DNA of 64,000 bases from positions 9,700 through 73,699 of IMG/VR virus record IMGVR_UViG_3300015610_000633. One strand, given 5' to 3'. The notes below the pieces were generated by a model that saw only the letters and a list, made by a program, of their open reading frames with translations, did not search any database and was not told the DNA's origin. The position numbers were made by a program, and so were the translations under genes. Positions 28,566 to 63,238 of the stretch are shown piece after piece (positions within the stretch are counted from its first letter, which is position 1; every line of letters starts with the position of its first letter). The DNA comes from a virus (taxonomy: Duplodnaviria > Caudoviricetes).

Positions 28566-28582
28566 TGTTCAGTTCTCACTAA

Positions 28583-30175
28583 TCAGAAGAAACCATCAGG
28601 GGGGGTTCGATACAGTATAAAGCCAACACCACCGGCCCTACGTGTATCGACAGCAGCGTGAAGACGTTTGTAAATCGTTGTTTCGGTTACAGGGTAACCG
28701 TCAAGCGCTATTGTATCCAAGTCAAGCGCGTTGTCGGGGTAGTCATCGAACGAGAACCCAAAATCACCCCAACCGAGTTGGGGAACATGAACGACAATGA
28801 AAGCCCTGAACTCGGTGAAATCAAACAACCACTTGAATCGATCGTTTTCTACAACAGTCGGATCATAATCAAACGCGTCAACGTCGAGATAAAAACCAGG
28901 TAGTTCTTCAAAACCGGGTGGTTCTCTAACCGTGACTTCAAAGTTGTATGGTGACACAACCGAGTTCACGCCTCGCTTGATCGCGTTAGGGGTTATCACA
29001 TCACCGACCCGAGCAATACGGCGCCTATATTGTGAGTCAGTTTCACCACTAACGCGGCTAATGTTTCGCTCTTTACCGAGTTGATCAAGAATGGCCGCTT
29101 TACCGCCGTTAGGTCGCTCTTCATTGGTAACTGTAACGGCCCAATCATTAGACCATGAACGCATTCGCCACGAAGCCGTATTTACTTCTTCAACGAACAC
29201 GGTTTCATAAATCACCGCTATTTCGGGATCTAGTACATTGTCACAATCGATCACAGCGGTTGACGTATCGCATGTGATCGATAGTCCTGAACCAAGTGCA
29301 AACGAACCGGTCTTTATACCGATTGTTATGCAACTCTTTGTACCCGGCCCTTGCGAAACACGGTGAACAATACCAACGGCGTTGGTTGTGGTCTGCCTAC
29401 ATGTTTCGCCTTCTTGAATATCCCCGGTGATTGTCGATTCAATCACCCACAAACGTTCTAGTTCTATTGTGCCACCGATGGGTGGGTTAGCCGTTAGGTC
29501 AGGCCCCGTGTAGCTAATAACCCGAGCAATCAACCCAAGATTAGAACCATCAATGAACTCGATTGTTTGTCCTACGTGTTCAGGTATAGGTACATCAGAT
29601 TCATTAGCGGCAACGAGGTAAACGCTACCCGTAGCAGGTACGATCTTGATCGTGCCGTGTTCATTTTCGAAATCGCTACCAGGTTGCGTTATAACGTTCA
29701 AGGTGTGCGGGTGGGGGTAGTTGTACCCGTACCCGATAAGTTCAGCCTCACATTCAACGTATAGAGGCCCGTGTTCACCGGGGTTGAACACTACCGGGGT
29801 CAAGAAAAGGTACTTACGCCCCGTGTTGATTCGTTGTGTGCCCGTTTTGCTGTAATCAATCGCGCGTTCTTCAATGGTTGTATTAGTTCCCATTATGAGC
29901 GGCAAAAACACATCATTAGAACGCTCGACTGTAATCATAACCCGCGCCTTGCTACCACCCGAAGCAGGTTCAGCAGTTTGCCCACTGTAAGGCAAAATAA
30001 ACGCGGCTTCGGTTGAAGTTTCGATTGCTCTCGAAACCATTTCAAGTTGTGCCAACCCTTGGTTGTAAGCTTCAAGCCCACCACCGTCACCCGCCGTAAT
30101 ATACGGATCATGGTAACTAGGATCGGTTGCAGCCTTCCAAACGTTGAGCAACTCTTCGCGGGTGTAGAAGGTCAT
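28583..30175 (-). CDS. Baseplate wedge protein
   Basis: LDQLGKERNISRVSGETDSQYRRRI motif typical of wedge proteins; follows baseplate J. Confidence 0.75.
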   Translation of the reverse strand: MTFYTREELLNVWKAATDPSYHDPYITAGDGGGLEAYNQGLAQLEMVSRAIETSTEAAFILPYSGQTAEPASGGSKARVMITVERSNDVFLPLIMGTNTTIEERAIDYSKTGTQRINTGRKYLFLTPVVFNPGEHGPLYVECEAELIGYGYNYPHPHTLNVITQPGSDFENEHGTIKIVPATGSVYLVAANESDVPIPEHVGQTIEFIDGSNLGLIARVISYTGPDLTANPPIGGTIELERLWVIESTITGDIQEGETCRQTTTNAVGIVHRVSQGPGTKSCITIGIKTGSFALGSGLSITCDTSTAVIDCDNVLDPEIAVIYETVFVEEVNTASWRMRSWSNDWAVTVTNEERPNGGKAAILDQLGKERNISRVSGETDSQYRRRIARVGDVITPNAIKRGVNSVVSPYNFEVTVREPPGFEELPGFYLDVDAFDYDPTVVENDRFKWLFDFTEFRAFIVVHVPQLGWGDFGFSFDDYPDNALDLDTIALDGYPVTETTIYKRLHAAVDTRRAGGVGFILYRTPPDGFF

Positions 30176-31284
30176 AAGTTCACCAACTGTATGTTTGCGG
30201 GTGTTGTACGAATGGCAACACCGAGATCGGGCACCACATCAGCTACGGGTTCAACGATCGTGTTTTCATCGGGGATCAAGCCTGCTGTCTTATACCCTTC
30301 GAGAATCGAGTACAATCCACCGATCGTCAACTTGCCGTTTACTGGTAGGTTGTTGACGTATGTTTGAACCGCGCCCCTAATGCTTCGCGCTAGTGTATCA
30401 GTATCAACGTTAGCCTTGAACACTAGCTTCAACTTGATCGTGATGATGTACGGGATCGAAGTATCAACCACAACACCGATCCCGGCTGCTCGCCAATCAT
30501 CCAAGTTGATTCGTGTCTGATAGGCTAGAGCTTTCGATGCGATGCCCGAACCGTCGGCTATGTACAACTTCACTATACGCGCGGGTTCGGCGCCACTTGT
30601 AAGAACTTCTTCGGCTTTAGCACTCACTACACCCGGTGTTTGAATCCCGCCTTGTTCAATGGCTGCTAGTGTGCCGCGCCTTGCAGTTATGAAGAAGTTG
30701 CGAAGCCTAGTTTTGAAAGTGTCATCGTCTTCGACATCTTCACCACCCGCGCTAGCTTCTTCATTGTTTACTTGAAGCGTTTGATCGAAAAGCAAACCGG
30801 GTTCCATGAACTGTCTAAGCGTATTCTTACCCGTTTGAGTATTCTTACCGGCTTGAACTGCTTTGACCTTGCATGAACTAACGAGATCACTAGCTCCAAA
30901 CACCGCGATCGTTGTGGTGATGTATTCAATACCCGTTAGGGTTGCGATCTTAGTTCCAACGGGCACTTCACCTGCACCCGCATCAAATGTTGATCGGGTG
31001 ATCTGTACCGTAGTCACGGCATTCGATGCACCCTTTCTAACTTCTTGGTATCGATCCCATGCGTAACGGTCGAGTAGTTCGTCGAAACAACTGTCTAGAA
31101 ACAATCCCGCTAGCTTGTAAGCCAGTTGAAGCACCAACTGAAAAGCTACGGCGGCCATTGAACCCACGAAGATGTTCACATCTGAACCTTCGGTATCGAC
31201 TTGATTAGGGTCGATTCTCGGGTTGTGATCGATCACATAGGACCGGCCCGTTTGTTGAAGATCAAGTCTGCTAGGTAGATCCAT
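30172..31284 (-). CDS. Baseplate J-like protein
   Basis: LLDRYAWDRYQEVRKGAS, GGEDVEDDDTFKTRL...RGTLAAIE, GVVSAKA; last sense codon is TTA. Confidence 0.9.
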   Translation of the reverse strand: MDLPSRLDLQQTGRSYVIDHNPRIDPNQVDTEGSDVNIFVGSMAAVAFQLVLQLAYKLAGLFLDSCFDELLDRYAWDRYQEVRKGASNAVTTVQITRSTFDAGAGEVPVGTKIATLTGIEYITTTIAVFGASDLVSSCKVKAVQAGKNTQTGKNTLRQFMEPGLLFDQTLQVNNEEASAGGEDVEDDDTFKTRLRNFFITARRGTLAAIEQGGIQTPGVVSAKAEEVLTSGAEPARIVKLYIADGSGIASKALAYQTRINLDDWRAAGIGVVVDTSIPYIITIKLKLVFKANVDTDTLARSIRGAVQTYVNNLPVNGKLTIGGLYSILEGYKTAGLIPDENTIVEPVADVVPDLGVAIRTTPANIQLVNL

Positions 31285-32165
31285 AATCCAACCTCGAAAC
31301 CCTTTTCAATGGTGAACTTCAACCCGATCTTTGTCTTCACTTGTATCGATAGTTTGACAAGGTTCGGGTACAACTTGTTTGGTGTGAATGTTACCGAGAC
31401 GTTAGACACTTCGGGTTCACGTCGAAGTTGTAGTTCAAGATCCGACGCTAGTTTTTGCCGTTCAGTAGCTCGTGAAAGTTTCTTGGTATATTTTTCGATG
31501 CCTATGCCATAACCGGGCATGTGAGTGAACCCGTTCTTGTTGGTGACAATGCGCCGAAGTATGCGCTTACGAAGAGCAGTTTCACCTTCATCAAACCCAT
31601 AATCACCGTTATCGTCTACATTGAAAACACCCAAGTATTGATCAAGTGCAAACGGTAGGGGGTCAGCAAACGCTTGTTTAGTTTGCGGTGATGCAATATC
31701 GCGTTGTGGCACTTGCAGATCAAAAACATTTTTTTGAAGTACTTTGAATGAACCATAAAAACCATATTGAGCATAACAAGGGTCAATCGTGGTTACCTTG
31801 TCAACGGTCCAAATATTCGAACATGTAAGCTTGTATCTTGCAGGGTACGGGGTCATTGCTCGGTCAAGCCATATGAGAACCGAAGAAGGGTTTATTAGCT
31901 CCGTTTTCACGGCTGTAACCGTTCGACAATGCAACCCGTTGTTACCTATACTTTCGATAGCTTCGAATGCATAACTATCAGGGTTTGAACCGTCTTTCAC
32001 ATCAAGAAGCAGGCTGTAATAAATAGGTTCAGAGAAGTCGACTTGAACCGCGTTTTCACGAACGGCTACGGCTTGTTCAATACCAAACGAACCGGTTGAT
32101 TCTGGGCTACCGTAAGGCGTAACGCCCCAACCCGTACCGTAAAACTTTTCGTCACAAGTGGTCAT
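31233..32165 (-). CDS. Baseplate protein with gp25/W-like C-terminal domain (would end at TTA 31284-31286)
   Basis: ALRKRILRRIVT...YGIGI...LELQLRREPEVSNVSV; precedes baseplate J. Confidence 0.7.
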   Translation of the reverse strand: MTTCDEKFYGTGWGVTPYGSPESTGSFGIEQAVAVRENAVQVDFSEPIYYSLLLDVKDGSNPDSYAFEAIESIGNNGLHCRTVTAVKTELINPSSVLIWLDRAMTPYPARYKLTCSNIWTVDKVTTIDPCYAQYGFYGSFKVLQKNVFDLQVPQRDIASPQTKQAFADPLPFALDQYLGVFNVDDNGDYGFDEGETALRKRILRRIVTNKNGFTHMPGYGIGIEKYTKKLSRATERQKLASDLELQLRREPEVSNVSVTFTPNKLYPNLVKLSIQVKTKIGLKFTIEKGFEVGLWIYLADLIFNKRAGPM

Positions 32166-32177
32166 GTGTTTGGTGTC

Positions 32178-32197
32178 ACGTCTAACCGGGTAGACGT
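32178..32197. repeat. Quasi-palindrome, copy 8
   Basis: ACGTCTAACCGGGTAGACGT. Confidence 0.95.
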
Positions 32198-32517
32198 CAA
32201 GGGCGAAGTGTTGGGGTGTTGTCGCTCGATGGTTCTTTGGCTTCCGATGTGATGATGTCTGTCACACCTTCGATCACGTTACCTTTTCTGATTTTGTCCA
32301 GACCAGCCAAGATCACATCGCTACGAATCATCAAGCCTTCGATGAAGTCGCAAAACCCATCAAGTCGGGTACCATCTTCGGGTTTGATCTTCTTGCGAAT
32401 GACTAGGACAATGATTCGAAGAATGCCTATCACAAGCGGGTACAACGCCAGTATCAATAGCCAATGGGCATCAACCCATCGCGTAACCGCTTCAACCAAG
32501 TTCGTCAGTTGTTCCAT
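32197..32517 (-). CDS. Putative holin-like membrane protein
   Basis: Hydrophobic N-terminal helix (WLLILALYPLVIGILRIIVLVI) followed by basic residues. Confidence 0.55.
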   Translation of the reverse strand: MEQLTNLVEAVTRWVDAHWLLILALYPLVIGILRIIVLVIRKKIKPEDGTRLDGFCDFIEGLMIRSDVILAGLDKIRKGNVIEGVTDIITSEAKEPSSDNTPTLRP

Positions 32518-32858
32518 GATTGGGGTTTATCACGAAACACGAACGAGTCAGTTTGCGAGCGTAACCCGCGAACTAGGTAGTGTATGAACTGCGCTATAAA
32601 GCCCCCAATCATACCGAAGACAGAATACTTACCCACTGCTACTAGTGCGCGTTTAGAGTCTTTCTTAGCGCCTTCGCTCGCTCGTGTTGCGGCTAGTATG
32701 TTAGCCTCCATTGTAGTCAACTTGTTCATCAATGTCGTTTGATACTCTTGATCTTTCTGTTTATGGGCTACCAGTGCAGCCCCGAACTTTTCAACCGAAG
32801 AGCAAACAGCATCAACTTTCGTTGACAATGTTTCAACCTGTTTAGTGAGTTCGTTCAT
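32505..32858 (-). CDS. Coiled-coil protein with C-terminal TM helix (holin/XhlA-like; would end VRG at TTA 32562-32564)
   Basis: Coiled coil followed by YSVFGMIGGFIAQFIHYLV. Confidence 0.55.
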   Translation of the reverse strand: MNELTKQVETLSTKVDAVCSSVEKFGAALVAHKQKDQEYQTTLMNKLTTMEANILAATRASEGAKKDSKRALVAVGKYSVFGMIGGFIAQFIHYLVRGLRSQTDSFVFRDKPQSWNN

Positions 32859-32942
32859 CGCGCGTGGTCCTACACGTTGGGTATGATCTAGGATCTAGCG
32901 CTTTGAAAAATCAAACTCAAACCCCCGACATACGAGCGATGT

Positions 32943-33488
32943 TCACTTAGGAAGTGAATCGGTTTTGCTGATTTTTGCGTCTTCGGTTTCGGTATTAGCT
33001 CCCGAAATAACCCGCAAGATCGGCGTGTACCATCGCAACAACTCTTGGTTCATGACCTTAGTCGGATCAATGAACGCACTAGGTTCATGACACACTTCGA
33101 TCGCGGCCCTAAGAAGCTTCACTTCATGCGGTGAAAGATCAAACAACGCACCTTCAAGGTTAGCTTCCATGAGCTTGCGATGTTTTTCATTGTCTTCTTT
33201 GAATGCGATCGCGAACTCGATAGGTACAGGTTCAGAAGAACCAACAAATGGGTATTGTTCCCTAAGCTCGGTTTCTGCTTTGGTTACAACTTCCCATTGC
33301 TTATCATGCTTGGCTTGTTGAGCTTTGATCTTGCGTTCAATGTCATATGCGACTTGACCTTTTTGAAACCCGGCAAATGCATTAGAACACAACAATCGAA
33401 GTATGCAATCGGCGGTTGCGTGAACAATCGGGTAAGCACGATCAAGTGGCCACACTCCGCGGTAACGGATCTTGATCGGTTCGGGCAT
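32943..33488 (-). CDS. Hypothetical protein
   Basis: ORF 32943..33557; start uncertain (33488 or 33524). Confidence 0.6.
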   Translation of the reverse strand: MPEPIKIRYRGVWPLDRAYPIVHATADCILRLLCSNAFAGFQKGQVAYDIERKIKAQQAKHDKQWEVVTKAETELREQYPFVGSSEPVPIEFAIAFKEDNEKHRKLMEANLEGALFDLSPHEVKLLRAAIEVCHEPSAFIDPTKVMNQELLRWYTPILRVISGANTETEDAKISKTDSLPK

Positions 33489-33813
33489 TACTTCCGATGA
33501 CTTTGGCTTTAGCTTTTCTTTCATTTCGCGCCTGCTCTTCTTGAAGTCGACTTTCAATCAACTTCACTTTATTAGCCAACTCATTGTGCAAAGCTCGTTC
33601 TTTTTGTGCAAGCTCATCCTTCAATGATTGTTCAGAAGCGATCAACATACCCTTTTCTTCTCGTAGTTGGTTCGCAAGTTCAGACTCAGCAACAAACTGT
33701 GAATGCAATGATTGAAGCTTAGCTTCGAGTTCTGCGATCTTAGCCTTACATTCGGCGGTTTCTTGTTGTGACTTTACCAAGTCTGACAACGGCACAAGTT
33801 CTTCAGTGGTCAT
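33442..33813 (-). CDS. Hypothetical coiled-coil protein
   Basis: Heptad-rich 123 aa; in-frame TTA at 33463. Confidence 0.6.
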   Translation of the reverse strand: MTTEELVPLSDLVKSQQETAECKAKIAELEAKLQSLHSQFVAESELANQLREEKGMLIASEQSLKDELAQKERALHNELANKVKLIESRLQEEQARNERKAKAKVIGSNARTDQDPLPRSVAT

Positions 33814-33839
33814 GCGTTAGCTATAGCACGAAAGAACCC

Positions 33840-33859
33840 ACGTCTAACCGGGTAGACGT
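33840..33859. repeat. Quasi-palindrome, copy 9
   Basis: ACGTCTAACCGGGTAGACGT. Confidence 0.95.
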
Positions 33860-34554
33860 TATGGCGTGTAGAATGGTGGTATCTTTGCAACTGTACCGAT
33901 TATGGTCGATTGATATAGTATGTTTGCAGCATGTATAAACAAGTAACCACCCGTGATCGTAGGTAGCGAAGTGACGATCAACCTACCCATAACGATCCCG
34001 CATGGTTCAACATCGGCGGTATCAATACGAGACGCCGAACCCCCAACGATTGCCAACGTCGAAGAATCAACCCTTTGCTTGTATTGTGGCGTGGTTGTTA
34101 TATCAACCGTGTTATATGCTATTTCAATCTGCTTTTCAGCATGAAACACGGCTTGATTATATGCTTTTGCGTATGTGTAATAATAGGTTGCTGTGAATGT
34201 TCCTGAAATATTGGTTCCGTTATGTGACCAGTGAAGATGCAAATCAAGCGTACTTTCACTAGCCACATCGCGAGGTAGGTTTGTTGTGATGTCTACAACG
34301 TCAGAAGCCGCAAATGACCATTCATAAGCGTTACCCCCTCGATATTGTCGCAATGTTGGTGTACCTGCACCCGACGTTTTCGGTTGAAAAACGCCGTTTG
34401 TTTCCATGAATGTTAGTGCGGGTGAAGCGGGGTTTGTGTATATGCCTGAACCTTTGCTTGGGTTCAATACAAGCCCGTTATCAGTCAATGAATGCGGCGA
34501 TGATGACCCGCTAGGGTAGTAGATCATTGCGCCGGGTGATTTTTTCCAAGCCAT
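33859..34554 (-). CDS. Tail fibre-associated virion protein
   Basis: Beta-rich 231 aa after the fibre gene; TAA stop overlaps a palindrome. Confidence 0.65.
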   Translation of the reverse strand: MAWKKSPGAMIYYPSGSSSPHSLTDNGLVLNPSKGSGIYTNPASPALTFMETNGVFQPKTSGAGTPTLRQYRGGNAYEWSFAASDVVDITTNLPRDVASESTLDLHLHWSHNGTNISGTFTATYYYTYAKAYNQAVFHAEKQIEIAYNTVDITTTPQYKQRVDSSTLAIVGGSASRIDTADVEPCGIVMGRLIVTSLPTITGGYLFIHAANILYQSTIIGTVAKIPPFYTP

Positions 34555-34558
34555 TTGA

Positions 34559-36907
34559 TCACGCTTTCTGAACGTCTACGAGTTGAACCAATGCAGAACA
34601 CCGCAACGCGTTTGTACCTGCTGTTTTTGAAAATGTCAGTCGAAGATTTGTACCCGAACCACTAAGAGCCAAACCCCAATCAGTCGGTGTTGTGGTTGAA
34701 CCTTCAACGTCACCCGCGTCAATGACTGTCACAGTACCCGAATTGTTTTTGATCAATGCGTTGGTTAGTTTCAACCGGCCTACATTTGTGAATGAAGCAG
34801 ACGTTGCAACCATCCAGACATCAACAGAATAGATCCTATTTGATCGGGTTATTATTTCTTGATCGGCCGAAGGGCCAGCCATTAGATTGACGCTTGCACT
34901 AGCAGAAGCAGCGGTTACACCCGACACTTGAACACGGCTGTTTTGAGGGTTGCCCGAAGCGTTACCCGAAGCATGTGCAACCTCGCCATAACTGGCCGCA
35001 TACGCATAATAACCCATTGCGATCGCGGTAACATTTGCAGCGGTGTTCAATATACCCACTGCAAACGCACTGTTACCCGAAGCAGTGTTTTGATTGCCGA
35101 AAGCCATAGCGGCAAACACGCTTGTAGTGTTGCTATACCCAACACAAACCGAATAATCGGCCGTTGCAATATTAAAACCGCCTATACATACCGAAACCGA
35201 ACCTGATGAACTATTGGAAGCACCGATCGCGATTGCATAATTATTTGAAGTCGTATTACTAACGCCTATGCATGTCGAGTCGTTACCCGAAGCCGTATTA
35301 GAACGACCCCACCAAATACCACCGTTACCCGAAGAGCCTGAACCTATTTGACCGCGCTGTGTTGACCCGTGGTAAAACTCAATATATCCCGATCGGGTTG
35401 TACCAGTTCCCGAATAGAACTGGAGCTTGCCACCGATTGTAGTTGTACCGGTTGCGTTTTGAGCCTGTATCGCAAATGCGGCACCGGTTGCACTATTGGT
35501 TGTAATATCCTGTTGATAAAAACCAACTGTACCTGTTAGCGATGACACGAAGGTCAAATATTTACCCGTCGGTGATAGTTGCATTCGATCAACACCACCC
35601 GTTCTAAGATATATTGAACCGTTTGCAGTACCACCCGAACCTGAACCGAGAATAAGATCGCCACCCGTAGTTGCTGCATTTTGAGCCAGCAAATACATAG
35701 TCGCACCTTTAGCGGCTAGCGTTGCCGAAATATAATAAGTAACTGAAGTACACGTTGATGAAGCCAAAATATTCAAATCGGTTGTGTCGCCATACATGAT
35801 GAGATTCAAGTTATCAGTATAAAAACCAAATGTGCCCACTTCGGGCATATACGCCATTACACGATTGTTGTTTACACCATCGCCCAGATAAACAGTAGTA
35901 TCAACCCAACTAAGTGTTTTGAACGGTGTACCCAAACCATCGGCATCACCGCCATATATTGCCGCACCGTCATTAGTTAGAAAATACAAACCCGAGTTAG
36001 TTATTTTCGCGACATCGCTTGCAGTATCAAACCGAAAATATGTTGAACCCGTTAGAGCCGCGTTGATAAACAATGAAGGTACATTTGACCCACCGAATGT
36101 AAGCGTGTCATCGGCTACTGACACCGCATTGTAATCAGTACCGCTATTACGAAACGCCGCGATCGTAGTGTTTGATTCGGTACGAATGCAACCCGTTGTT
36201 GCGGGTGTCGTTCCGAACTTCACGGCGGTCAACGTCGGTGTTGAAGAGTATACCGGTGAGCTACTTGTAACCCCGGCTAGTACGGTGCCCGTAGTGCCTT
36301 GGGGCAAATCGGAAAGTGAAAGGGTAGCGGCTGCAACAACCCCCGCAGTTGCCTTTAGGACGCCCGTCAACGTGCCGATCGTTAGTCCTGATACCGTAGG
36401 GGTAGAAGTGAAGTTAGAAGAAGCACCGGTGCCTGCTAGCACGGTGCCCGATGCCCCAACGGGAAGGGAACCCGCCAACAAGTCGGTGAAGATTGTTTCA
36501 AGGGCTTCGGCCCAACCCTTTACCGATAGGCCCGTAGCGTGTTCGGCCATTTCACCGAATGCGGGGAAACGCCAACCCCTGCGAACAGTTGCACCCGCGT
36601 TGTCTTTAGTGACTCCGATCAAACGCGTTTGTACATTGCCGCTAGTGCTTTGCCCGTTCGTGGTAAGTCGAACAAGGTACGTACCCGGTTGATCGGGTGT
36701 GAAAGTAGCAGTAGCCGATGTCGCGTTAGTTAGTGTCGCGCTGCTACCCGTTGGAATGTCTAGCAGTTCCCAAAGATAGGAAGTGTTACCCGCTAGGGTA
36801 GAAACCAGGTTGATCGCTTGTTGGTTCCACAAACCCGAACGCGCAAGGCCCGCCGTTCCCGTACCTGCACCGCTTGGTTGATCGATTCGTATCTTTGCGC
36901 CGGGCAT
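34559..36907 (-). CDS. Tail fibre / adhesin with N-terminal Ig-like (PKD) domain and YadA-like head repeats
   Basis: SYLWELL..P.GS...ATFTPDQPGTYLVRL; repeats such as NTASGNDSTCIGVSN and NTASGNSAFAVGILN; Gly/Thr/Ser-rich. Confidence 0.8.
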   Translation of the reverse strand: MPGAKIRIDQPSGAGTGTAGLARSGLWNQQAINLVSTLAGNTSYLWELLDIPTGSSATLTNATSATATFTPDQPGTYLVRLTTNGQSTSGNVQTRLIGVTKDNAGATVRRGWRFPAFGEMAEHATGLSVKGWAEALETIFTDLLAGSLPVGASGTVLAGTGASSNFTSTPTVSGLTIGTLTGVLKATAGVVAAATLSLSDLPQGTTGTVLAGVTSSSPVYSSTPTLTAVKFGTTPATTGCIRTESNTTIAAFRNSGTDYNAVSVADDTLTFGGSNVPSLFINAALTGSTYFRFDTASDVAKITNSGLYFLTNDGAAIYGGDADGLGTPFKTLSWVDTTVYLGDGVNNNRVMAYMPEVGTFGFYTDNLNLIMYGDTTDLNILASSTCTSVTYYISATLAAKGATMYLLAQNAATTGGDLILGSGSGGTANGSIYLRTGGVDRMQLSPTGKYLTFVSSLTGTVGFYQQDITTNSATGAAFAIQAQNATGTTTIGGKLQFYSGTGTTRSGYIEFYHGSTQRGQIGSGSSGNGGIWWGRSNTASGNDSTCIGVSNTTSNNYAIAIGASNSSSGSVSVCIGGFNIATADYSVCVGYSNTTSVFAAMAFGNQNTASGNSAFAVGILNTAANVTAIAMGYYAYAASYGEVAHASGNASGNPQNSRVQVSGVTAASASASVNLMAGPSADQEIITRSNRIYSVDVWMVATSASFTNVGRLKLTNALIKNNSGTVTVIDAGDVEGSTTTPTDWGLALSGSGTNLRLTFSKTAGTNALRCSALVQLVDVQKA

Positions 36908-36923
36908 TGTGTGAACTTTCTTT

Positions 36924-37247
36924 TCAGGTTTTTTCGTATTGCTGGATTGCTACATCATCGGGATCGGGGTCGAACGATGCAACCCTACCACCGCCCCATT
37001 GCAACCCCCCAGAAATAGACAGCGGGTTGTTCAAGTCACAGTTCAGCGAAAGGCTAAACGAGAAGAAAGGAAGCGGCGGCGGAAAGGGAATGGCGGGCAA
37101 GTTCAGGTTGAAAAACAACCTGAACGAAGGGAGTGCAAACCCACACAAGCTAGCAGCGGGCGGACCAGCAACGAACCCCGCGCTAACCATCGATTGATCT
37201 TGTTGTTGTACCGGTGGTGCGTCGGGTGGTGGTGGTGAACCTGCCAT
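36924..37247 (-). CDS. Small Pro-rich hypothetical protein
   Basis: Start MAGSPPP at 37247, which overlaps an upstream TTA (TTATG). Confidence 0.6.
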   Translation of the reverse strand: MAGSPPPPDAPPVQQQDQSMVSAGFVAGPPAASLCGFALPSFRLFFNLNLPAIPFPPPLPFFSFSLSLNCDLNNPLSISGGLQWGGGRVASFDPDPDDVAIQQYEKT

Positions 37248-38278
37248 AAACCCACCGTGAACCCTACACACCCGAGACCGGGTGTAGTTGCGCCAGTTGC
37301 GGGATCTGGACTCTTAGGACCGAGCAACGCGGCGTTGATTGCAGACAACACCGCTTGACTCAACACACCAACGGGCGGGGTTGAAGCGGTGATCGCTGCT
37401 AGTATCAACGGCAAGTTAGCGGGGTCAACAAGCATTGCACCAAGCATTGTACCCGTTAGAGGCGTAGGCCCCAAAAGATTGAGCGCAACGCCAAGGGCGT
37501 TCAACACCTGCGACACGAAAAGAACCGTTGATTGTGCTGTTGTTATAGTGCCGAACGGTGGGTTGCCCGAAGTGGAGATCGAAAAGGTACCCGGTGTTGC
37601 GGCTTGTGCTTTGGTAGAACTCCAATCAAAGATCGCGCTACCGTCAACGGACATACGGATCAGCTTGTTGGTGTAATCAAGTTGAAGCAGCATTTCACCA
37701 TCGCCCGATTGCATTCCTATGAAGTCGGCACCCAAGTGAAAGAAGCCCCCTGATGAATCGCTAAACGTCATATTGCCGTTTGCTTCAATCCCGAAGTACG
37801 TACCCGTTACGGCACTTCGTACAAGGTAGCTTGAAGCGGTTTCGATTACGTAGGGAACCCGCATCCTACGAAACGCAAAGTTGTTACCACTCACTTCGTT
37901 ACCTGCGACCATGGTAGGGAATGCATCGATCTCTTGATTCATTCTACCCACGATCACGGCGTTACCCGGTGAACCTTCGGGCATCACAACAAGAACTTCA
38001 TCCCCTTCAAGAAAGGGGAACCATTCACCTTCCCCATTGCCTGCGACTGTACCCGCTACACGCGCACGAACGGGGATACCCGCGGGTTGAAGAGTGACAT
38101 TCACCAACGGACCATACTCGGGTGAAAATACGACGGCTTTACCGCCATCTTCTTCTGATTGATCCTTATCCACTAGGGCCATTGAAACCCATGCTCGCGT
38201 ATCAATACCCGGCCCCTTCAATAGCTCAACAAGTTCATTGACGGGGAATCGCCCGAATGTTCGAGACATAAGATCCAT
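37103..38278 (-). CDS. Baseplate spike/hub protein, gpV/gp5 OB-fold type (would end at TTA 37247-37249)
   Basis: VRARVAG..AGNGEG.W.P..EGDEVLV....G.PGNAVIVG motif; beta-repeat C-terminal region. Confidence 0.8.
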   Translation of the reverse strand: MDLMSRTFGRFPVNELVELLKGPGIDTRAWVSMALVDKDQSEEDGGKAVVFSPEYGPLVNVTLQPAGIPVRARVAGTVAGNGEGEWFPFLEGDEVLVVMPEGSPGNAVIVGRMNQEIDAFPTMVAGNEVSGNNFAFRRMRVPYVIETASSYLVRSAVTGTYFGIEANGNMTFSDSSGGFFHLGADFIGMQSGDGEMLLQLDYTNKLIRMSVDGSAIFDWSSTKAQAATPGTFSISTSGNPPFGTITTAQSTVLFVSQVLNALGVALNLLGPTPLTGTMLGAMLVDPANLPLILAAITASTPPVGVLSQAVLSAINAALLGPKSPDPATGATTPGLGCVGFTVGLWQVHHHHPTHHRYNNKINRWLARGSLLVRPLLACVGLHSLRSGCFST

Positions 38279-40065
38279 AACTGTTTACCCCCTGCGTTTG
38301 TTTGGGTGGTTGTCTTCTTCGGGGTTCCCGGTGGTGGTTTCACAGGTTCATCAGGCCCCAATGATTTATCAGCCCTGACTTCAAGGTAGTTTCTCCCTTG
38401 TATTTCGATCTCTACACCCATGTCACAATCCCATCTAATGCCAACTTGTGCAGTTCTGAACGTGGTTTGAAAACCAACGTTTGAATACACTTCGGCGTAA
38501 GCTTTGGCGATTGCACCATCATACCCCAATGTTTCGAGGTATTCCCTAGCGCGTTGTTGAAGCAACAATATGTTTTCGATCGAAGTCATCGAGTTGTATT
38601 CAACGTTTTCACGGTTGACTTGTAGATCGAAAGTATCACCCGGTTGCATGTCGAGTATATCGGGATCAAGGTTGCCACCCCCGAAACTAGCCATGTTTTT
38701 CGTTTTCACCGAAACCGTGAACTCACCGCGGTTTAGTTGTTCATAAACCGATTGAGCGATGATTCTCAACTGCAACGGATCTTTGATGGGAAGGTTGACC
38801 CGATGAACGATCCATTTTTGATCGGCCACATCACCCGGCAATACAAGAACCCCAAACACACGATCACCCGGCAAGGGGAACCTAGCAACCATCACCTTTT
38901 TGCGTTGGGGGTTGTAACACCGAACTTCAACATTCTGCATTGCTGCAAATGTGAACTGCCTTGCAATCTTAGCCGATTCGATATTTCGACCATATATCAA
39001 GTGGCGATAAGTCAACAGCTTACCGCTTTGCACTTGTCTCGGTACATAGGGATCGTCATCCCGTACTGTGAAATCAGAACTAGTGATCGTGCGCACCCGT
39101 TGAATGATTATTCTATCGCCCAACATACGGCACATGTGCCCGATAGAGCCGCACACATCAGTCAAATAATCCCAAACCGAAAGATCTGAACCACCCCCCG
39201 GTGGTGGTCCTAGTTGCGGCCTGTAGGAAGTACCCGCGAGTGTTTCCGCAAGCTTAGGGGGAGTCGCGTTTTGTGGCACATATTCGACCGTTAGACCTGC
39301 GCACCGAGGGAAGTTGCAAAGGTATAGCGCTATGGCTCGATCAATCGGTTCTTTGGCGTTTATGAACAACTGCGGGGGAGCTTTTTGATCGATCAACAAT
39401 ACCGTGTTGTCGCGACAATCAAGACGCACAAGCGGTTCACCTTCTTCACTTATTTCAGTTTCCCATTTATCAACCCAACCTTCAAAACGAAGGTTACTCC
39501 GTTGTTGCCCCCAACTGTCGATATACGTATCGGGTATTACATTCAACAACTCAGTACCCGCTTGATTGTACTGACCCGCGCTTACCGCTCGCGTTTCGCC
39601 ATTCATGCCGTGCCTGTATTCATCTTCAGTCAAACACCCAAGATAATATTGAACGCGACAAGCTCTAATCACACGAGGGTCAAAGGGAAGATCGATCCAT
39701 TTGAAAGTCAGGTTCAAAACATCGGCTTGACGTATGCCGTTGATACCTAGCGCCGCTTCTTTAGGAATGATCGCCCCTAGTGGTTGGGTAAGATCATCGC
39801 GGCTATTTTTTCGATTCAAAGATGATTGCGGTGATTGTACTTCTTTCGGCTTCAAAAAATAACGTGTTGTACCCGGTGGTGCAGTCTCATCGGGTGTAGG
39901 GTATAGCGGTGCGATCCTTCCCTTAGCGCCCCTTAGAAGTTGTGGGGGAACCTTCGGCGCCAGTGCCATCACAAGATTGGTTTTTGACTTCATTTCATCG
40001 AAACGAAGAATCAACCGTACTTTAGCGGCCGGGTAGTAAGTTTGTTCGGGGAACTCTATTTCCAC
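38218..40065 (-). CDS. Baseplate hub (gpD/late-control-like) protein (would end at TTA 38278-38280)
   Basis: Position after the LysM-like gene; VRLDCRDNT and YGRNIESAKIARQF features. Confidence 0.7.
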   Translation of the reverse strand: MEIEFPEQTYYPAAKVRLILRFDEMKSKTNLVMALAPKVPPQLLRGAKGRIAPLYPTPDETAPPGTTRYFLKPKEVQSPQSSLNRKNSRDDLTQPLGAIIPKEAALGINGIRQADVLNLTFKWIDLPFDPRVIRACRVQYYLGCLTEDEYRHGMNGETRAVSAGQYNQAGTELLNVIPDTYIDSWGQQRSNLRFEGWVDKWETEISEEGEPLVRLDCRDNTVLLIDQKAPPQLFINAKEPIDRAIALYLCNFPRCAGLTVEYVPQNATPPKLAETLAGTSYRPQLGPPPGGGSDLSVWDYLTDVCGSIGHMCRMLGDRIIIQRVRTITSSDFTVRDDDPYVPRQVQSGKLLTYRHLIYGRNIESAKIARQFTFAAMQNVEVRCYNPQRKKVMVARFPLPGDRVFGVLVLPGDVADQKWIVHRVNLPIKDPLQLRIIAQSVYEQLNRGEFTVSVKTKNMASFGGGNLDPDILDMQPGDTFDLQVNRENVEYNSMTSIENILLLQQRAREYLETLGYDGAIAKAYAEVYSNVGFQTTFRTAQVGIRWDCDMGVEIEIQGRNYLEVRADKSLGPDEPVKPPPGTPKKTTTQTNAGGKQLWILCLEHSGDSPSMNLLSY

Positions 40066-40085
40066 TTAGCAGGTTATAGACTGCT

Positions 40086-41333
40086 TCAACCTGCAAGGGT
40101 AGGTATAACCAACACTTTACCAACGGGCAGTGCGGTCATAGTCCACGGCAAACTATTAGATTTCAGGATATCGATCGCGTGGTCTGCAGTGTTGTAGAAC
40201 TGCAACGAAACTGAAGAAGCAGTGTCACCCGCCCGAACAATGTACAATGATTCAACCGTTGAAGGTGTGGTGTTCTTGGTACCTTGTGAAGTGGCTTGAC
40301 CACCACTTGAACCTGAACGGCTATACTGCTTCAAAAACTGCAACATGACACTGTTGACTTGTTTAGTAACACCATTGACAGAATCATGACTCTTACCGAT
40401 CAAAGTGACGTTACGAAGTATGTCAGCCGCATTGGTTGTTTTGCTTTGTTTTTCTGCAGGTATAGCCGACACGGTTTGTGAATATTGTTTGGCTATTGTT
40501 GACATATTATCCATGGCTTGCGTGACAGTGTTTTCAACCTGACCCGGTATTGATGCAACCTTGTTCACAAGGTCAGTGAAGTTTTGAAACTGCTTAGCCA
40601 TTTTTTGAAGATCTCGCGTTACTCCCTTCACAAGATTGTTAGGATAGTCCGCAAGATTCGACAGTTGATCAAACGTTAGATTAGGAACCCCTTGTCCCTT
40701 CTTCTTTTTTTGACCATCGGTGTTGATGACAATATCAGTATAAAAGTTGTCTACTAGTTGGTTCATATCAAGCACCAACTGAGAAGCTTCGGAAGCAGGA
40801 TCACCCGTTCGCAACGCAACAACTTTCTGTTGTGTAACGCCGCGACTCATCCAAGCCCATTCAATGCGCCACCCTATATCCGACTCGGTATCGTGGTTGA
40901 AAATAATCGAAGCAGCTCGCCCTTCACGAACCAATGAAAAGAACGCATCGATCTGCGCCGAACTAACCCATGTCACGCGCAAGCGCGCGCCTTGCCTGCA
41001 TATTTGTTCCATGAGTTCTTTCAAAACCCATGGTGTGGTGATCTTGGTTTCGTTACCCCCTTCGCTATACAATGCGGGTGATTTACCCATCATCGTTCTA
41101 CGCCAAAAACCCTCAAACGTAGTTGGTGGTTCAATAGGGCCAAGAACCTGTTGTGTGGCTTCACTAGCGTTGCCACTATACCATGTAGTTGTGATCCTGT
41201 TCTGTGTGCCCCATGAAACACCCCTATGTGGCAAAGTAGGACCGCGCAGCGTGATCTTACGTTCAAGCCCCGACACTTCTTCGATCGTGATTTCACTAGT
41301 GAAGCTTGAAGGCTGAACAGTTTTGATCGCCAT
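40086..41333 (-). CDS. Tail tube initiator / LysM-containing baseplate protein
   Basis: C-terminal YIVRAGDTASSVSLQFY...PVGKVLVIP LysM-like motif; ATG 41333 lies just after a palindrome; the ORF track fuses it with the upstream acidic region. Confidence 0.65.
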   Translation of the reverse strand: MAIKTVQPSSFTSEITIEEVSGLERKITLRGPTLPHRGVSWGTQNRITTTWYSGNASEATQQVLGPIEPPTTFEGFWRRTMMGKSPALYSEGGNETKITTPWVLKELMEQICRQGARLRVTWVSSAQIDAFFSLVREGRAASIIFNHDTESDIGWRIEWAWMSRGVTQQKVVALRTGDPASEASQLVLDMNQLVDNFYTDIVINTDGQKKKKGQGVPNLTFDQLSNLADYPNNLVKGVTRDLQKMAKQFQNFTDLVNKVASIPGQVENTVTQAMDNMSTIAKQYSQTVSAIPAEKQSKTTNAADILRNVTLIGKSHDSVNGVTKQVNSVMLQFLKQYSRSGSSGGQATSQGTKNTTPSTVESLYIVRAGDTASSVSLQFYNTADHAIDILKSNSLPWTMTALPVGKVLVIPTLAG

Positions 41334-41343
41334 GGTGTGCTTG

Positions 41344-41363
41344 ACGTCTAACCGGGTAGACGT
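41344..41363. repeat. Quasi-palindrome, copy 10
   Basis: ACGTCTAACCGGGTAGACGT. Confidence 0.95.
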
Positions 41364-41798
41364 GGTGAATAAATCAGCTTCGGGATTGAGCAGCGCTTGT
41401 GCCCAAACTGACAAGGGTACAAGTCGTTCAGAAAGATCTTCAAGTGTCTTGTCGGCTGCGTCTTTCGGATCTTCGGGAACGTCTGCACCTTCGGCGGCTT
41501 CTTGCGCGGCTGCAACGGCGGCTTCGGCGGCGGCTTGTGCTTCGGGATCTTCCGGGTCGGCTTCAGCTGCTTCAACTGCACCTTCGGCAGTTTCGATCTG
41601 GTCTTCTACTTGATCGATTTCGCTACCTTCGGCTTCACCATCAGCGGGTTCTTCATCACCCGATTCTTCATCATCCTCGGGTGGTGGCAAATCATCGCCT
41701 TCTTCGTTGTCTTCTGTTGGATCAAGAGACTCAAGATCCTCCTCTTCATCATCTTTGCCAAGTATGTTTTTGAGCGCCGAAACGATCTTGTTTGCCAT
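41349..41798 (-). CDS. Highly acidic hypothetical protein (separate gene only if TTA 41349-41351 terminates)
   Basis: MANKIVS start with GAAAGGTG upstream; E/D/A-rich; first TTA falls inside the palindrome. Confidence 0.5.
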
Positions 41799-41814
41799 GT
41801 TATCACCTTTCTTA

Positions 41815-43899
41815 TCACGGCCCGAACACACCACCAACTTTAGCATTGCGTCGATTTTCAGCGGCGTTGATGATGTCGCGTTGAAAGATCATGGCAATAC
41901 GATCGGGATCTTGATCCCTGAAATCTTGCTTCAAGTTGAAGGTGTTGTTGTTGAACTCCACTTTGGGATTCTGCTTCATTGCGGGTGCTTCTGCCAAACC
42001 CATGAGCTTCTTTTTGAAGTCTTCGGCACCATCACCGACCATTGAAGCCAATAGCTCGAACCCGCCTTGAACCTCGGTACCGGCCTTCAAGAACATTTGT
42101 TGAAGCGCTACGTTGCCTTCAAACATCTTGGCTATGGTCTGCATTTGCACCTTGTTACCGTTCACAACCGCGGTTGAATACGCATCAATGAACTGTTCAA
42201 GTTGCTTTACATCTTCCATATACGCTTCGTTGCTGTCTTGCTTCACGCCTTCTTTGGCCATGTCATGACGTGCGTTCATCGTGTCGCGCATCATGTCAGC
42301 GGCGTCTTGTGCTTTATTGATTACGGCTTGGTTTTTCTTACCTTCTTCGTATAGCCGATCCATTGCATCGGCCATTGATTTCAGTTCTTTCTGTGTGTAA
42401 CCAGCCGATTCGCCGAACTCGAACACCCGCTTACGCAACATGTCGTAGTCTTTGGCGGTAGCTTCACGCGTACCATTCGCCCAACCCGCGGCTGCATCCA
42501 TGGTAGCCAGCAAGTTGTCATTAGCTTCAACATGCCACGGTAGGACCGCCCCGAACTCTTTCATGTATTGCGTCGCTTGATACACAGCGGCACCGACACC
42601 CACAACAGCAGCCCCGAACGCTGCAAGGCCCGTAGCAGTGGCACCCAGCGCCCCCGCTGCGCCTGCACCCATGCTACCCTTGGCAATGTGTGCCGCTCCG
42701 ACAGCCGACGCTGCTGTAGCGGCTTGAGTGCCCGCACTGGTCAACGTTCCTACGGCACCCGTAACCGCGGGTATTGCCGCTTTGGCACCAAACGCAACAG
42801 CTATCTCTTCTTTATGCGCCAAGATAAACTTGAACACCTTCTCAGCCATTTCGAAACCTTGCGAGATCGCATGTTTGATTTCGTCGGCATGAGTCACCAC
42901 ATAATCGAAGCCCTTTTCTATAGCTTTCGCGGCTTCGCTAATATATTTCGTCACCTTCTCACTGAACATTCTAACGAAGCTCTCAATCACTCCCTTGTTC
43001 GCTTCAAGCTTCTCTTTGAACCTATCGAGAGCAGGCACAACCGCGGCTATGATTGGCTTACCGAAGCCTTCGAGAAACCGATCTTTCATCGTGCCTAGTT
43101 GCTGCATAACGGTTTGAAAGGTTGCGGGCACACCAACCATTTGCTTTGCCATCTTACCGATCGCGACTTGTGCAAACGACATAGCCGATGCATCGGTTAG
43201 AAGATTCAACTGTTGTGCAACCTGCTTCGCGTTCCCTTTGAGGGTACCCGTAGCGGCGATCATTTGAACGATCGGATCTGTAGCCTTCGCACCTTGCGCG
43301 CTGAAGTTGTTGAACGATTGTGCAAGCGCTTCGGGACCACCTGCGACCGCTCTACCCGCAGTGCCTATATTTCGCATAAGCTTAGCGATGTCTTCATCGC
43401 TTCGCTTGAAGGCTTTCTCCCATTGGTTCAGGGGCATATTGATCGATTGCCCCGAAGCCGTAATGAACGAACGCGAAGTGTTGAATGTATTTGCTAGGGT
43501 TGTGTAAAGCTCCGTTGCTGTATTCTTTGCAATACCGGTGCGCGCAGCAAACCGATCCATTTCAGAGTTGAAGACGTTTGCTTTCTTCGCGAGGGTATCC
43601 CAATCGGTGCCAGCCTTCGCGGTTAGCGACATTAGGCCGGTCATATGTTTTTGAGTATTTTCAAGGTCGAGCGCTTTGGTAAACGCTTCTTTACCCATTT
43701 CAAAAAGTTTACCCGTTGACATGGCCAACTGAAAACCAAGCGCGGTTGCGGCTGCTTCTTTGAAGAAACCCACAACCCCCGCTTGTGCCTTATCAGCAGC
43801 GTCGGAAAGGTTACCGAAGCCTGACTTGATCTTATCCATTGCGGCCTTGGATTGATCGTCAAGCTTGAAGACTGCTGAAACTTCAGTTTTTGCGGCCAT
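41815..43899 (-). CDS. Tape measure protein
   Basis: Ala/Gly-rich helical 694 aa between the chaperones and baseplate genes. Confidence 0.85.
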   Translation of the reverse strand: MAAKTEVSAVFKLDDQSKAAMDKIKSGFGNLSDAADKAQAGVVGFFKEAAATALGFQLAMSTGKLFEMGKEAFTKALDLENTQKHMTGLMSLTAKAGTDWDTLAKKANVFNSEMDRFAARTGIAKNTATELYTTLANTFNTSRSFITASGQSINMPLNQWEKAFKRSDEDIAKLMRNIGTAGRAVAGGPEALAQSFNNFSAQGAKATDPIVQMIAATGTLKGNAKQVAQQLNLLTDASAMSFAQVAIGKMAKQMVGVPATFQTVMQQLGTMKDRFLEGFGKPIIAAVVPALDRFKEKLEANKGVIESFVRMFSEKVTKYISEAAKAIEKGFDYVVTHADEIKHAISQGFEMAEKVFKFILAHKEEIAVAFGAKAAIPAVTGAVGTLTSAGTQAATAASAVGAAHIAKGSMGAGAAGALGATATGLAAFGAAVVGVGAAVYQATQYMKEFGAVLPWHVEANDNLLATMDAAAGWANGTREATAKDYDMLRKRVFEFGESAGYTQKELKSMADAMDRLYEEGKKNQAVINKAQDAADMMRDTMNARHDMAKEGVKQDSNEAYMEDVKQLEQFIDAYSTAVVNGNKVQMQTIAKMFEGNVALQQMFLKAGTEVQGGFELLASMVGDGAEDFKKKLMGLAEAPAMKQNPKVEFNNNTFNLKQDFRDQDPDRIAMIFQRDIINAAENRRNAKVGGVFGP

Positions 43900-43901
43900 G
43901 G

Positions 43902-44222
43902 TCAGGTTCTTTCGTTCAATGATGACATCGCATTTTCTTCACCGATAACTTTGCCCACGGCTTGAAGAAGTCGATGAAGCTCGCCAAGTGGTAGTTGCTT
44001 GATTTCATCAAGTGAAATCCGACCATAACGAGACAAGTACACACGGCGTTTGATGATCTGTTTTCGACGTTCATCAGGATCAAGATCGATCCCGGCTTGC
44101 TTCGTACCCGCTAGGACCTCGTAATGGGGTAGCAAGTCTTCAAGCATGGCTTCCAACCAAGTCGGATGAGGGGGCAAGCCCTCATCGTTATCGGTAAAAT
44201 CACGGTCCTGGTAGCCATGCAA
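43902..44222 (-). CDS. Tail assembly chaperone, -1 frame extension
   Basis: YLSRYGRISLDEIKQLPLGEL; in the -1 frame relative to the upstream chaperone at a T7 slippery site. Confidence 0.7.
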   Translation of the reverse strand: MHGYQDRDFTDNDEGLPPHPTWLEAMLEDLLPHYEVLAGTKQAGIDLDPDERRKQIIKRRVYLSRYGRISLDEIKQLPLGELHRLLQAVGKVIGEENAMSSLNERT

Positions 44223-54929: not shown

Positions 54930-55307
54930 CTACGTTCCTAACATCGGGATGTCGTTATCAACCTGTTCAACACCCGCGAAGTCTGGTGTTGCGGTTGAGC
55001 CTGCACTTTCGCCGATCAACTTGAACGGCTTCTTACCCGCTTCACCGGGCTTGTTGTACACCTGTCGGGTTGTGGTGCTTGCAAACGGCAAGCGTCCACC
55101 CGCGGGTACTGTGTCTTGATTGATGCCACCTGCACCCATTGGTTGCGGGGCGGGCTTCTCTGCTGTGAAGTCGCGACCCCCACCCTTTCGACCGTTCCCG
55201 GTTGGGTTAGTCAAAAAGTTGTTACCACCCGATGAAGCGCCAAGTGATGTTGCACCCGCGCCGTTGCCAAAGGGGGATTCACTGCCGTTACCTGGATTTT
55301 CAGCCAT
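54930..55307 (-). CDS. Gly/Pro-rich hypothetical protein
   Basis: 125 aa, low complexity; in-frame TTA at 54939, three codons before TAG. Confidence 0.6.
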   Translation of the reverse strand: MAENPGNGSESPFGNGAGATSLGASSGGNNFLTNPTGNGRKGGGRDFTAEKPAPQPMGAGGINQDTVPAGGRLPFASTTTRQVYNKPGEAGKKPFKLIGESAGSTATPDFAGVEQVDNDIPMLGT

Positions 55308-59829: not shown

Positions 59830-60557
59830 TTTCGATCTCCGTTTCTGAGTGCTGTCATTTTTATCGTGTACACATTGCACAATGCTTGTGTGTACACGAT
59901 CGGTTCAACCGAACCGTTTGATCGCTTGAAGTTGCTGATTTCGATTCGCGCTTTTCTTATTGCACCGATCAACCTGTTTTGCAGGTTCGAAAGTGAATCG
60001 GGTGTCAACCTGTAATGTTTGATCAAGTTACACAACCCGATCGGATCTTCACGCTCGATTGTATCCCATAGTTTCGCGGTCGAACCGTACATACGCCGCA
60101 ACATATACACGAAGTCAATGCACCCATCGACCGACGAATCAAACGCGGGTCGCTTAGTCATTGCGTGAGGCGGTTCAAACCACGTTTGATACTTTAGGCC
60201 GTTCGTTGTTAGCTTCGCAGTACCCGGCCCGTTGTCTTGTGAAACTAGATCGCCCCCTTCTTTGGAACGAAACGAACGGATCTGCTCTTTCGTCAACCAT
60301 TGACAACTCACAACCGACGTCCACTTGAACCACACATTGGCATCAAGTGTTAGTTGCGAATAGTTGAAGTTGTAAAGCTCCGTTGTACCCCAACGCGTAG
60401 CCAACCCCCACAACGCAAGAAGCAACGCCGAAGGCGGTTGTGCTTTCTCCCCTAGTGCAGTCCACGCTAGGTCTAGTTCTTTCGATACTACCCCGATCGT
60501 TAGATCGGTAACGCGGTGTTGTGGCAAGTAATCGGGTGATGTTCGGTCTAGCAGCAT
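59826..60557 (-). CDS. Hypothetical protein, possibly a degenerate glucosaminidase/lysozyme-like fold
   Basis: LALWGLATRWG...YNFNYSQL loosely resembles the AQ..LE.GWG...NN.FG motif but lacks the catalytic Glu. Confidence 0.45.
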   Translation of the reverse strand: MLLDRTSPDYLPQHRVTDLTIGVVSKELDLAWTALGEKAQPPSALLLALWGLATRWGTTELYNFNYSQLTLDANVWFKWTSVVSCQWLTKEQIRSFRSKEGGDLVSQDNGPGTAKLTTNGLKYQTWFEPPHAMTKRPAFDSSVDGCIDFVYMLRRMYGSTAKLWDTIEREDPIGLCNLIKHYRLTPDSLSNLQNRLIGAIRKARIEISNFKRSNGSVEPIVYTQALCNVYTIKMTALRNGDRK

Positions 60558-63218: not shown

Positions 63219-63238
63219 ACGTCTACCCGGTTAGACGT
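63219..63238. repeat. Quasi-palindrome, copy 15
   Basis: ACGTCTACCCGGTTAGACGT. Confidence 0.95.

Follow-up and report, generated by a model that had tools for sequence, protein, structure and literature searches.

What ends a phage gene when the triplet placed where its stop codon should be is TTA, a leucine codon in the standard code? This question is raised by five gene junctions in the tailed-phage record IMGVR_UViG_3300015610_000633 (IMG/VR; Caudoviricetes), of which a stretch of 64 kb, positions 9,700 to 73,699, is referred to here as the window. At each of these junctions, located on the minus strand at 38280-38276, 37249-37245, 31286-31282, 30177-30173 and 2494-2490, the pentamer TTATG links two neighbouring genes in such a way that the upstream open reading frame (ORF) meets its first in-frame TTA there and the A of this triplet is also the first base of the next ATG. 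Comparison with related sequences makes it very probable that, in this phage and its close relatives, UUA acts as a translation-termination signal and thus as a fourth stop codon beside UGA, UAA and UAG. At the level of sequence, TTA is absent from gene bodies, stands at the ends of orthologous proteins and swaps with TGA or TAA, a pattern that recurs across a clade of phages and in independent assemblies.

Three of the junctions had already been singled out in a first-pass annotation, which recognised the upstream gene's first in-frame TTA within TTATG at 38280-38276, 37249-37245 and 31286-31282 and proposed that it fills the stop slot. This geometry is borne out. At 38276..38280 (CAG TTA TGG), TTA ends a baseplate/hub-region protein of 595 amino acids (aa; 38278..40065) and ATG starts a 343-aa OB-fold (Phage_base_V-like) protein; at 37245..37249 (GGT TTA TGG), this 343-aa protein ends (37247..38278) and a 107-aa protein starts (36924..37247); and at 31282..31286 (GGA TTA TGG), a 293-aa protein (31284..32165) is followed by a 369-aa Baseplate_J protein (30175..31284). 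The recA/sbcD and BplJ/wedge junctions, listed in the same annotation as TTATG(A), do read TTATGA at 2494 and 30177. At 30173..30177, TTA ends Baseplate_J with a TGA next in frame and ATG starts a 530-aa protein (28583..30175), and at 2490..2494 TTA ends a RecA-like protein (2492..3694) and ATG starts an SbcD-like metallophosphoesterase (1737..2492). Both partners of this -1 stop-start overlap are real genes at all five junctions, with orthologs that start or end there.

Under the standard bacterial code (table 11), the ORFs at 38280, 37249 and 31286 extend 20, 48 and 17 codons past TTA, generating overlaps of 61, 145 and 52 nt with the next gene (38218-38278, 37103-37247 and 31233-31284), as had been calculated before. 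TTA would then be an ordinary, extremely rare leucine codon, and the overlaps would merely encode short non-conserved tails. It is true that the frames remain open past TTA up to a standard stop and that public gene callers annotate them accordingly. The tail quoted as implausible, LWQVHHHHPTHH, reads as reported, and no such extension is conserved in any ortholog. Three IMG/VR contigs, L001 and L002 (67-68% GC) and L003 (43% GC, with ordinary use of TTA), share the gene order and encode orthologs 37-48% identical. Their proteins end at TTA or no more than two residues from it at 37249 and 31286, and before TTA at 38280, and none of them matches the standard-code tails. Orthologs conserving the extended C-termini, named in advance as the finding that would speak against a stop function, were looked for without success.

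Comparison of the junctions codon by codon leads to the same point. At 38280, TAATG is found in L003 and TGATG in L001, and TTATG is kept at the same codon in L022, a closer relative from a separate assembly (NCBI GCA_964607205.1; 51% GC; 65-86% amino-acid identity over 13 genes). At 37249, three orthologs stop at most one or two residues from TTA, the 48-codon tail is without a match, and L022 has TGA at exactly the same codon, the protein being 343 aa long in both phages. The L022 counterpart of the downstream 107-aa gene is also 107 aa long and 83% identical, which identifies the ATG at 37247 as the true start. Orthologs end at TTA at 31286, where L022 keeps TTATG. At 30177, L022 has TGATG at exactly the same codon and Baseplate_J measures 369 aa in both phages. 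The tabulation of junction pentamers and the ortholog comparison that had been suggested as a check gave the predicted outcome, TAA or TGA in place of TTA, with related phages carrying TAATG (L003), TGATG (L001, L022) or ATGA in the slot. If TTA were just a rare leucine codon, there would be no explanation for the presence of TGA or TAA at that very codon in relatives, for the five-fold sharing of its A with the next ATG, or for a tail at 38280 that measures 20 codons in this phage and 3 in a close relative.

The arrangement of these junctions also bears on how neighbouring genes might be translated. The tally of true junctions on the coding strand gives 5 TTATG, 0 TAATG, 3 TGATG and 17 ATGA, and control pentamers produce between 0 and 3 junction-like matches. 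A null distribution built from the number of TTATG followed by a long ORF (26 matches) was dropped in favour of this tally, given that internal Met codons of the type xTT-ATG inflate the count. Shine-Dalgarno-like G-runs are found 7-12 nt upstream of ATG in four of the five TTATG junctions. With the A of UUA doubling as that of AUG, UUAUG would represent the same -1 stop-start overlap as UAAUG or UGAUG, in which termination followed by reinitiation couples the expression of adjacent genes. Translational coupling is the most likely function of UUAUG given that G-runs precede four of the five ATGs and that the geometry equals that of UAAUG and UGAUG. The fact that UUA takes the stop role in a classic coupling overlap argues in turn for true, efficient termination rather than for stalling.

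Independent evidence comes from codon usage within genes. Among the 14,678 codons in the interiors of the 40 genes of 200 aa or more, in-frame TTA appears only 3 times, as compared with 157 and 144 occurrences in the two other frames, whose rate predicts about 151 (Poisson P about 1e-60). All three exceptions turn out to be gene ends, at 60531 and at 41372 with 41351, and the remaining in-frame TTA triplets of standard ORFs fall within the final 1-62 codons or, ahead of the real start, among the initial 3-5. The next rarest sense codon, TCC, is used 38 times. Codons ending in A are otherwise favoured (GAA 704 vs GAG 206; CAA 470 vs CAG 122), and TTG, CTA and TCA have 459, 204 and 293 in-frame uses, respectively. 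The 15 genes in the approximately 14 kb of genome beyond the record contain no in-frame TTA. Several other causes of this depletion have been discarded. Avoidance of TTA at the DNA level is ruled out by its normal off-frame frequency, selection for an open antisense frame by the lack of depletion of CTA (204) and TCA (293), and U-to-A editing or a modified-base effect by the fact that neither could be frame-specific; a by-product of TTAA/AATT avoidance is likewise ruled out, as such avoidance varies among the relatives with TTA stops. Rarity of a leucine codon would in any case leave unexplained that every in-frame TTA is an end defined by orthologs or precedes a true start, and the base composition predicts TTA to be at least as common as TTG. 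The comparisons made already contradict the view of TTA as an ordinary leucine codon, which is considered highly improbable.

When TTA is treated as a stop, 81 genes are obtained in the 73.7-kb record, ending in TGA (52), TTA (14), TAA (11) or TAG (4). There is no sign that TAG or TGA is recoded as a sense codon: TGA, TAA and TAG close genes under table 11, the resulting lengths match those of orthologs and no tRNA passes Rfam. The 14 genes ended by TTA, among about 96 in the genome, include nine besides those of the TTATG junctions, and in these 9 of 14 sites a spacer or a palindrome comes next and there is no overlapping ATG. The TTA at 41370..41372 ends a 158-aa acidic protein and is followed, in the same frame, by a 20-bp palindrome and the ATG of a 415-aa protein. 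The standard code yields here a single ORF of 586 aa (40086..41846) made of the 158-aa protein, TTA, the otherwise-intergenic palindrome and the 415-aa protein. Orthologs of 412-417 aa begin at the internal ATG of this ORF, L001, L002 and L003 all have two genes, and a relative with 70% identity has separate genes for proteins of 160 and 415 aa at this position. The 607-aa portal protein ends at 56694..56696, a position where three homologs (76, 66 and 58% identical) show leucine and then either a stop or a tail of unrelated sequence. L004 has TTA as this codon, and both of its in-frame TTA triplets lie within the last 23 codons of the standard ORF. The TTA of a DUF6011 protein (63238..63240) adjoins the 20-bp palindrome in the same register as TGA and TAA do elsewhere. 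For a 202-aa dCMP-deaminase-like protein (60529..60531), the standard code gives an extension of 62 codons into the next gene, which encodes 243 aa and has a 241-aa counterpart in a relative. The TTA that ends a 259-aa protein (44195..44197), past which the standard code adds 28 codons, is kept in strain variants, and the 98-aa protein ended at 32562..32564 has TGA at its aligned C-terminus in L022. The other sites end a 122-aa head-region protein (54939..54941), a 116-aa protein (33463..33465) and a 382-aa protein of the replication module (8512..8514).

These sites are also informative about the proposal that UUA is a hungry codon promoting programmed frameshifting or hopping, so that neighbours would be made as fusion proteins. 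This idea is attractive in that frame changes from one gene to the next coincide exactly with the rare UUA. Nonetheless, the standard-code orthologs are separate genes closed by TAA or TGA, with their own start and Shine-Dalgarno-like G-run, and the joined product is not a conserved unit. Moreover, 9 of the 14 sites lack an overlapping ATG, and up to four baseplate proteins would have to be fused in a row (38280, 37249, 31286 and 30177), which is implausible. The chance that frameshifting or hopping accounts for the pattern is judged to be vanishingly small.

Use of TTA as a stop is also found outside this phage. L022 contains 2 in-frame TTA in 4,254 codons, as compared with 72 off frame, and both form TTATG, at the orthologs of 38280 and 31286. 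TGA replaces TTA in L022 at three sites: the codon is exactly the same for 37249 and 30177, and for 32564 the TGA coincides with the protein end in the alignment. Two more relatives, L030 (NCBI GCA_054403495.1) and L031 (SRR13171217), both about 55% identical, have 11 in-frame TTA in 5,244 codons and 12 in 6,698, respectively, with 149 and 164 off frame. Nearly all of these in-frame triplets are at gene ends, many as TTATG or directly before intergenic palindromes that are particular to each phage, and TTA closes about half of the virion genes in both. The relative with 70% identity (SRR28520264 contig) has the 293-aa and Baseplate_J proteins called as one ORF of 663 aa, and ATGA at the ortholog of 38280. 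In P0123, an ORF of 1,018 aa under the standard code, the 415-aa and 595-aa proteins appear fused through an 'L' and eight residues, and the gene positions called for P0004 require an xTATG overlap. On these sequences, the phages sharing the trait form a clade with at least seven members, which come from unrelated samples. It is specific to this clade, because relatives at 49% identity or less (L017, 62% GC, and L003) use TTA inside genes.

Sequencing or assembly error has been ruled out by the agreement of many independent contigs and of the whole clade. The same phage is present at 99.6-100% identity in many contigs from JGI, ENA (with MEGAHIT and SPAdes names) and Logan; among the near-identical contigs, 14 carry the 615-aa ORF of the hub junction (P0121) and 19 carry the endolysin gene. 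Every TTA stop covered by the contigs compared base for base is kept. Strain variants L019 and L020 (99.8%) retain all eight TTA stops of the 21.8 kb compared, and none of their 43-44 single-nucleotide polymorphisms falls in a TTA stop or introduces a new in-frame TTA. The JGI contig L016 is identical to the 9.7 kb at the virion end of the record except for one mismatch and two gaps.

How UUA might be read as a stop is suggested by known organellar systems. A class-I release factor of widened specificity would release the peptide at UUA, the likeliest candidate being an RF2-type factor of the host, which would also be devoid of a UUA-reading tRNA-Leu. This part of the model, drawn by analogy with organelles, is considered the most likely one for several reasons: essential virion genes have TTA or TGA interchangeably at a given codon, the overlapping start would be blocked if the ribosome were only stalled on UUAUG, L030 and L031 rely on UUA to end half of their virion genes, and organellar UUA termination accompanies RF2-type changes (PMC12574857). 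Termination at TTA looks efficient, TGA being the main stop. No such factor was found in the phage, so it probably comes from the host, which would then share the code. It seems somewhat more probable than its opposite that a free-living bacterial lineage and its phages use four stops, UUA being recognised by a widened release factor, in what would be the first sense-to-stop change outside organelles.

Several observations weigh against termination at UUA as a plain property of the code. Taken alone, the junctions at 30177 and 2494 do not separate leucine from stop, TGA following directly after TTA. No release-factor (RF-1) domain was found in the 73.7-kb record and no release factor was detected by Pfam or PHROGs in 10 of the 15 ORFs added from outside it; of the others, 4 were judged from precomputed Pfam labels and one, of 69 aa, has none. 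Nor is there any tRNA-Leu in the ~87.7-kb genome. Finally, the distribution of TTA stops is skewed towards the virion/packaging block (12 of 50 genes, window 26973-63990, against 2 of 46 elsewhere; Fisher P = 0.008), a bias that a plain host-wide code does not predict and that leaves room for a mechanism timed by the phage. As a variant, the phage itself might impose UUA termination late in infection, which the 12/50 vs 2/46 bias would fit. The virion bias is also reminiscent of other phages, in which stop-codon recoding favours late genes. As to tRNAs, ARAGORN reports a 71-nt tRNA-Ala(UGC) at L026:14380-14450, antisense to all genes. No tRNA reaches the gathering score of Rfam, and the call is likely to be spurious.

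These same observations give some room to a different explanation, in which UUA is simply unassigned, either because the host has no UUA tRNA or because the phage removes it as a host shut-off (e.g. by an anticodon nuclease), and stalled ribosomes are rescued. TTA would then be avoided in gene bodies and tolerated or exploited at gene ends, mainly in late genes. That neither a release factor nor a tRNA has been found in the genome as scanned is compatible with such a scenario, as is the fact that many phage proteins have no family match, and the enrichment of TTA stops in the virion block (P = 0.008) with bodies free of TTA in every module fits a change imposed during infection. However, a ribosome stuck on UUAUG would obstruct initiation at the overlapping AUG of an essential downstream gene, and rescue of the transfer-messenger RNA (tmRNA) type would tag portal, hub and baseplate proteins for degradation. 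The free swap of TTA and TGA at the same codon in a close relative argues for equal function, and L030 and L031, with TTA at the end of about half of their virion genes, could hardly sustain an inefficient rescue. Stalling with rescue is on this account considered unlikely, and genuine termination at UUA is preferred.

Aside from the TTA stops, the genome displays other sequence signatures. The 20-bp palindrome ACGTCTA-MCCGGK-TAGACGT occurs in 17 copies, 3 of them upstream of the window and 14 in it (first base on the minus strand at 63238, 61412, 53778, 45467, 41363, 33859, 32197, 26229, 23271, 21714, 16496, 12853, 10337 and 4051). Most copies directly follow a stop, in a register shared by TGA, TAA and TTA, and the next ATG comes 10-30 nt further on. 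L022 has the same palindrome, and the corresponding place behind TTA is taken in L031 and L030 by palindromes of their own, TCAACCCGGGTTGA and CTCAAACCGGTTTGAG. The element might serve as an operator or form an RNA hairpin. In the whole genome (G000), TTAA is seen 3 times for ~110 expected and AATT 6 times for ~189, other 4-bp palindromes being normal. L022 avoids both TTAA and AATT, L030 only AATT and L031 only TTAA, so that this scarcity looks like a changeable avoidance of restriction sites, independent of the TTA code.

The IMG/VR record is linear, with 73,699 bp, 48.8% GC and a CheckV completeness of 81%, and all its genes are on the minus strand. Contigs of 87,017-87,690 bp from three assemblies join both ends of the record, which indicates a full genome of ~87.7 kb. 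The ~14 kb that the record lacks are covered by L026 and L023, which bridge the ends with about 13,967 extra bases (L026:10809-20777 and L023:6529-10526). This region encodes the large terminase (phrog_38), an MT-A70 methylase, an Amidoligase_2 protein, a GGACT protein and eight or more ORFs without assigned function, and contains a 123-bp repeat, 99% identical, at L026:12896-13018 and L023:367-489. The virion module is of the contractile-tail type and includes the portal, a Mu-F-like protein, the OB-fold hub protein, Baseplate_J and fibre-like proteins. The replication module comprises PolB, DnaB, primase, UvrD, RecA-like and SbcCD-like proteins, a class II ribonucleotide reductase, a ThyX-like protein, dCMP deaminase and dNMP kinase. 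A set of genes suggestive of modified DNA bases is formed by the ThyX-like protein (459 aa; L005:808-2184), dCMP deaminase and dNMP kinase (window 60532-61137 and 21748-22365), the amidoligase and GGACT proteins (L026:10934-13006), an MTase-SNF2 fusion (1,251 aa), and three ParB-N proteins with a PAPS-reductase-like protein (cluster on L005).

Among cultured phages, no match was obtained by megablast with window 28000-42000 or by tblastn with two junction proteins. The portal protein reaches at most 25-27% identity in cultured phages, to those of Ralstonia and Komagataeibacter, so this phage has no cultured relative. Scans of viral contigs with Baseplate_J or the portal as single query recovered no relatives, and those found by a metagenome scan were all at most 47% identical and use TTA in the ordinary way. 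Two scans of genome contigs for the host (portal alignment; UvrD) gave nothing, nor did the atlas taxa for UvrD point to one.

The reassignment of UUA has practical and evolutionary consequences. Proteins predicted with table 11 that run through TTA are wrong, with tails up to 62 residues too long or with neighbours fused into ORFs of 586, 663 and 1,018 aa. Downstream genes are also given late starts by table 11 callers, as in the case of an 88-aa JGI product at the place where a 243-aa gene fits. Such errors distort clustering, structure prediction and the calling of downstream start sites. On the evolutionary side, only small organellar genomes were believed to have undergone sense-to-stop reassignment; its presence in a phage clade would imply that some bacterial translation system stops at UUA, and would make it possible to test in bacteria how release-factor specificity evolves.

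How does this phage compare with other systems in which codons at gene ends have unusual roles? Some phages, mostly in the late genes of crAss-like, Lak and other types, read TAG or TGA as an amino acid. The likeness lies in a code that departs from table 11, in the miscalling of genes by standard tools and in the late-gene bias of the odd codon. The direction is nevertheless the opposite one here, from sense to stop, with TAA, TAG and TGA still closing frames, and no suppressor tRNA or release-factor gene was found in this phage. Rare UUA codons also serve as a regulatory signal in high-GC actinobacteria and their phages, through bldA-dependent TTA codons. The same codon is nearly absent from coding sequence in both cases, but this phage has 49% GC, prefers codons ending in A and confines TTA to protein ends. 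The wider family of this phage is mostly of 62-68% GC, which suggests that TTA may have been lost before its capture as a stop. Overlaps of -1 and -4 nt (UAAUG/UGAUG and AUGA) are the classic termination-reinitiation geometry (PMC10666635). The TTATG junctions share this geometry, the Shine-Dalgarno-like run in the end of the upstream gene and the location in a virion operon, with canonical forms in relatives; they differ in that UUA occupies the stop slot, TAATG being found at no junction and TTATG at five.

The organellar codes offer a parallel for the codon itself. The mitochondrial code of Thraustochytrium corresponds to NCBI table 23. UUA has been described as a stop in labyrinthulean (Thraustochytrium) mitochondria, in peDinoflagellate plastids (UUA/UCA) and in the mitochondria of Marsupiomonadales and Pseudoscourfieldia (UUA/UUG), where it has been linked to RF2-type changes (RF2 Ser204-type), and the plastid case was called the first sense-to-stop change outside mitochondria (PMC12574857). 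Full-text literature searches found UUA as a stop only in organelles, and none in bacteria or phages. As in organelles, the same leucine codon has become a stop, missing from the interior of genes and found only at the points where homologs end, and the standard code miscalls neighbouring genes as fused. The difference is that here it operates in a tailed phage of a bacterium, and that UUG (459) and UCA (293) stay sense codons. The comparison of sequences supports in this way the view that a known organellar change, UUA becoming a stop, has appeared in a setting new for it, a clade of bacteriophages.

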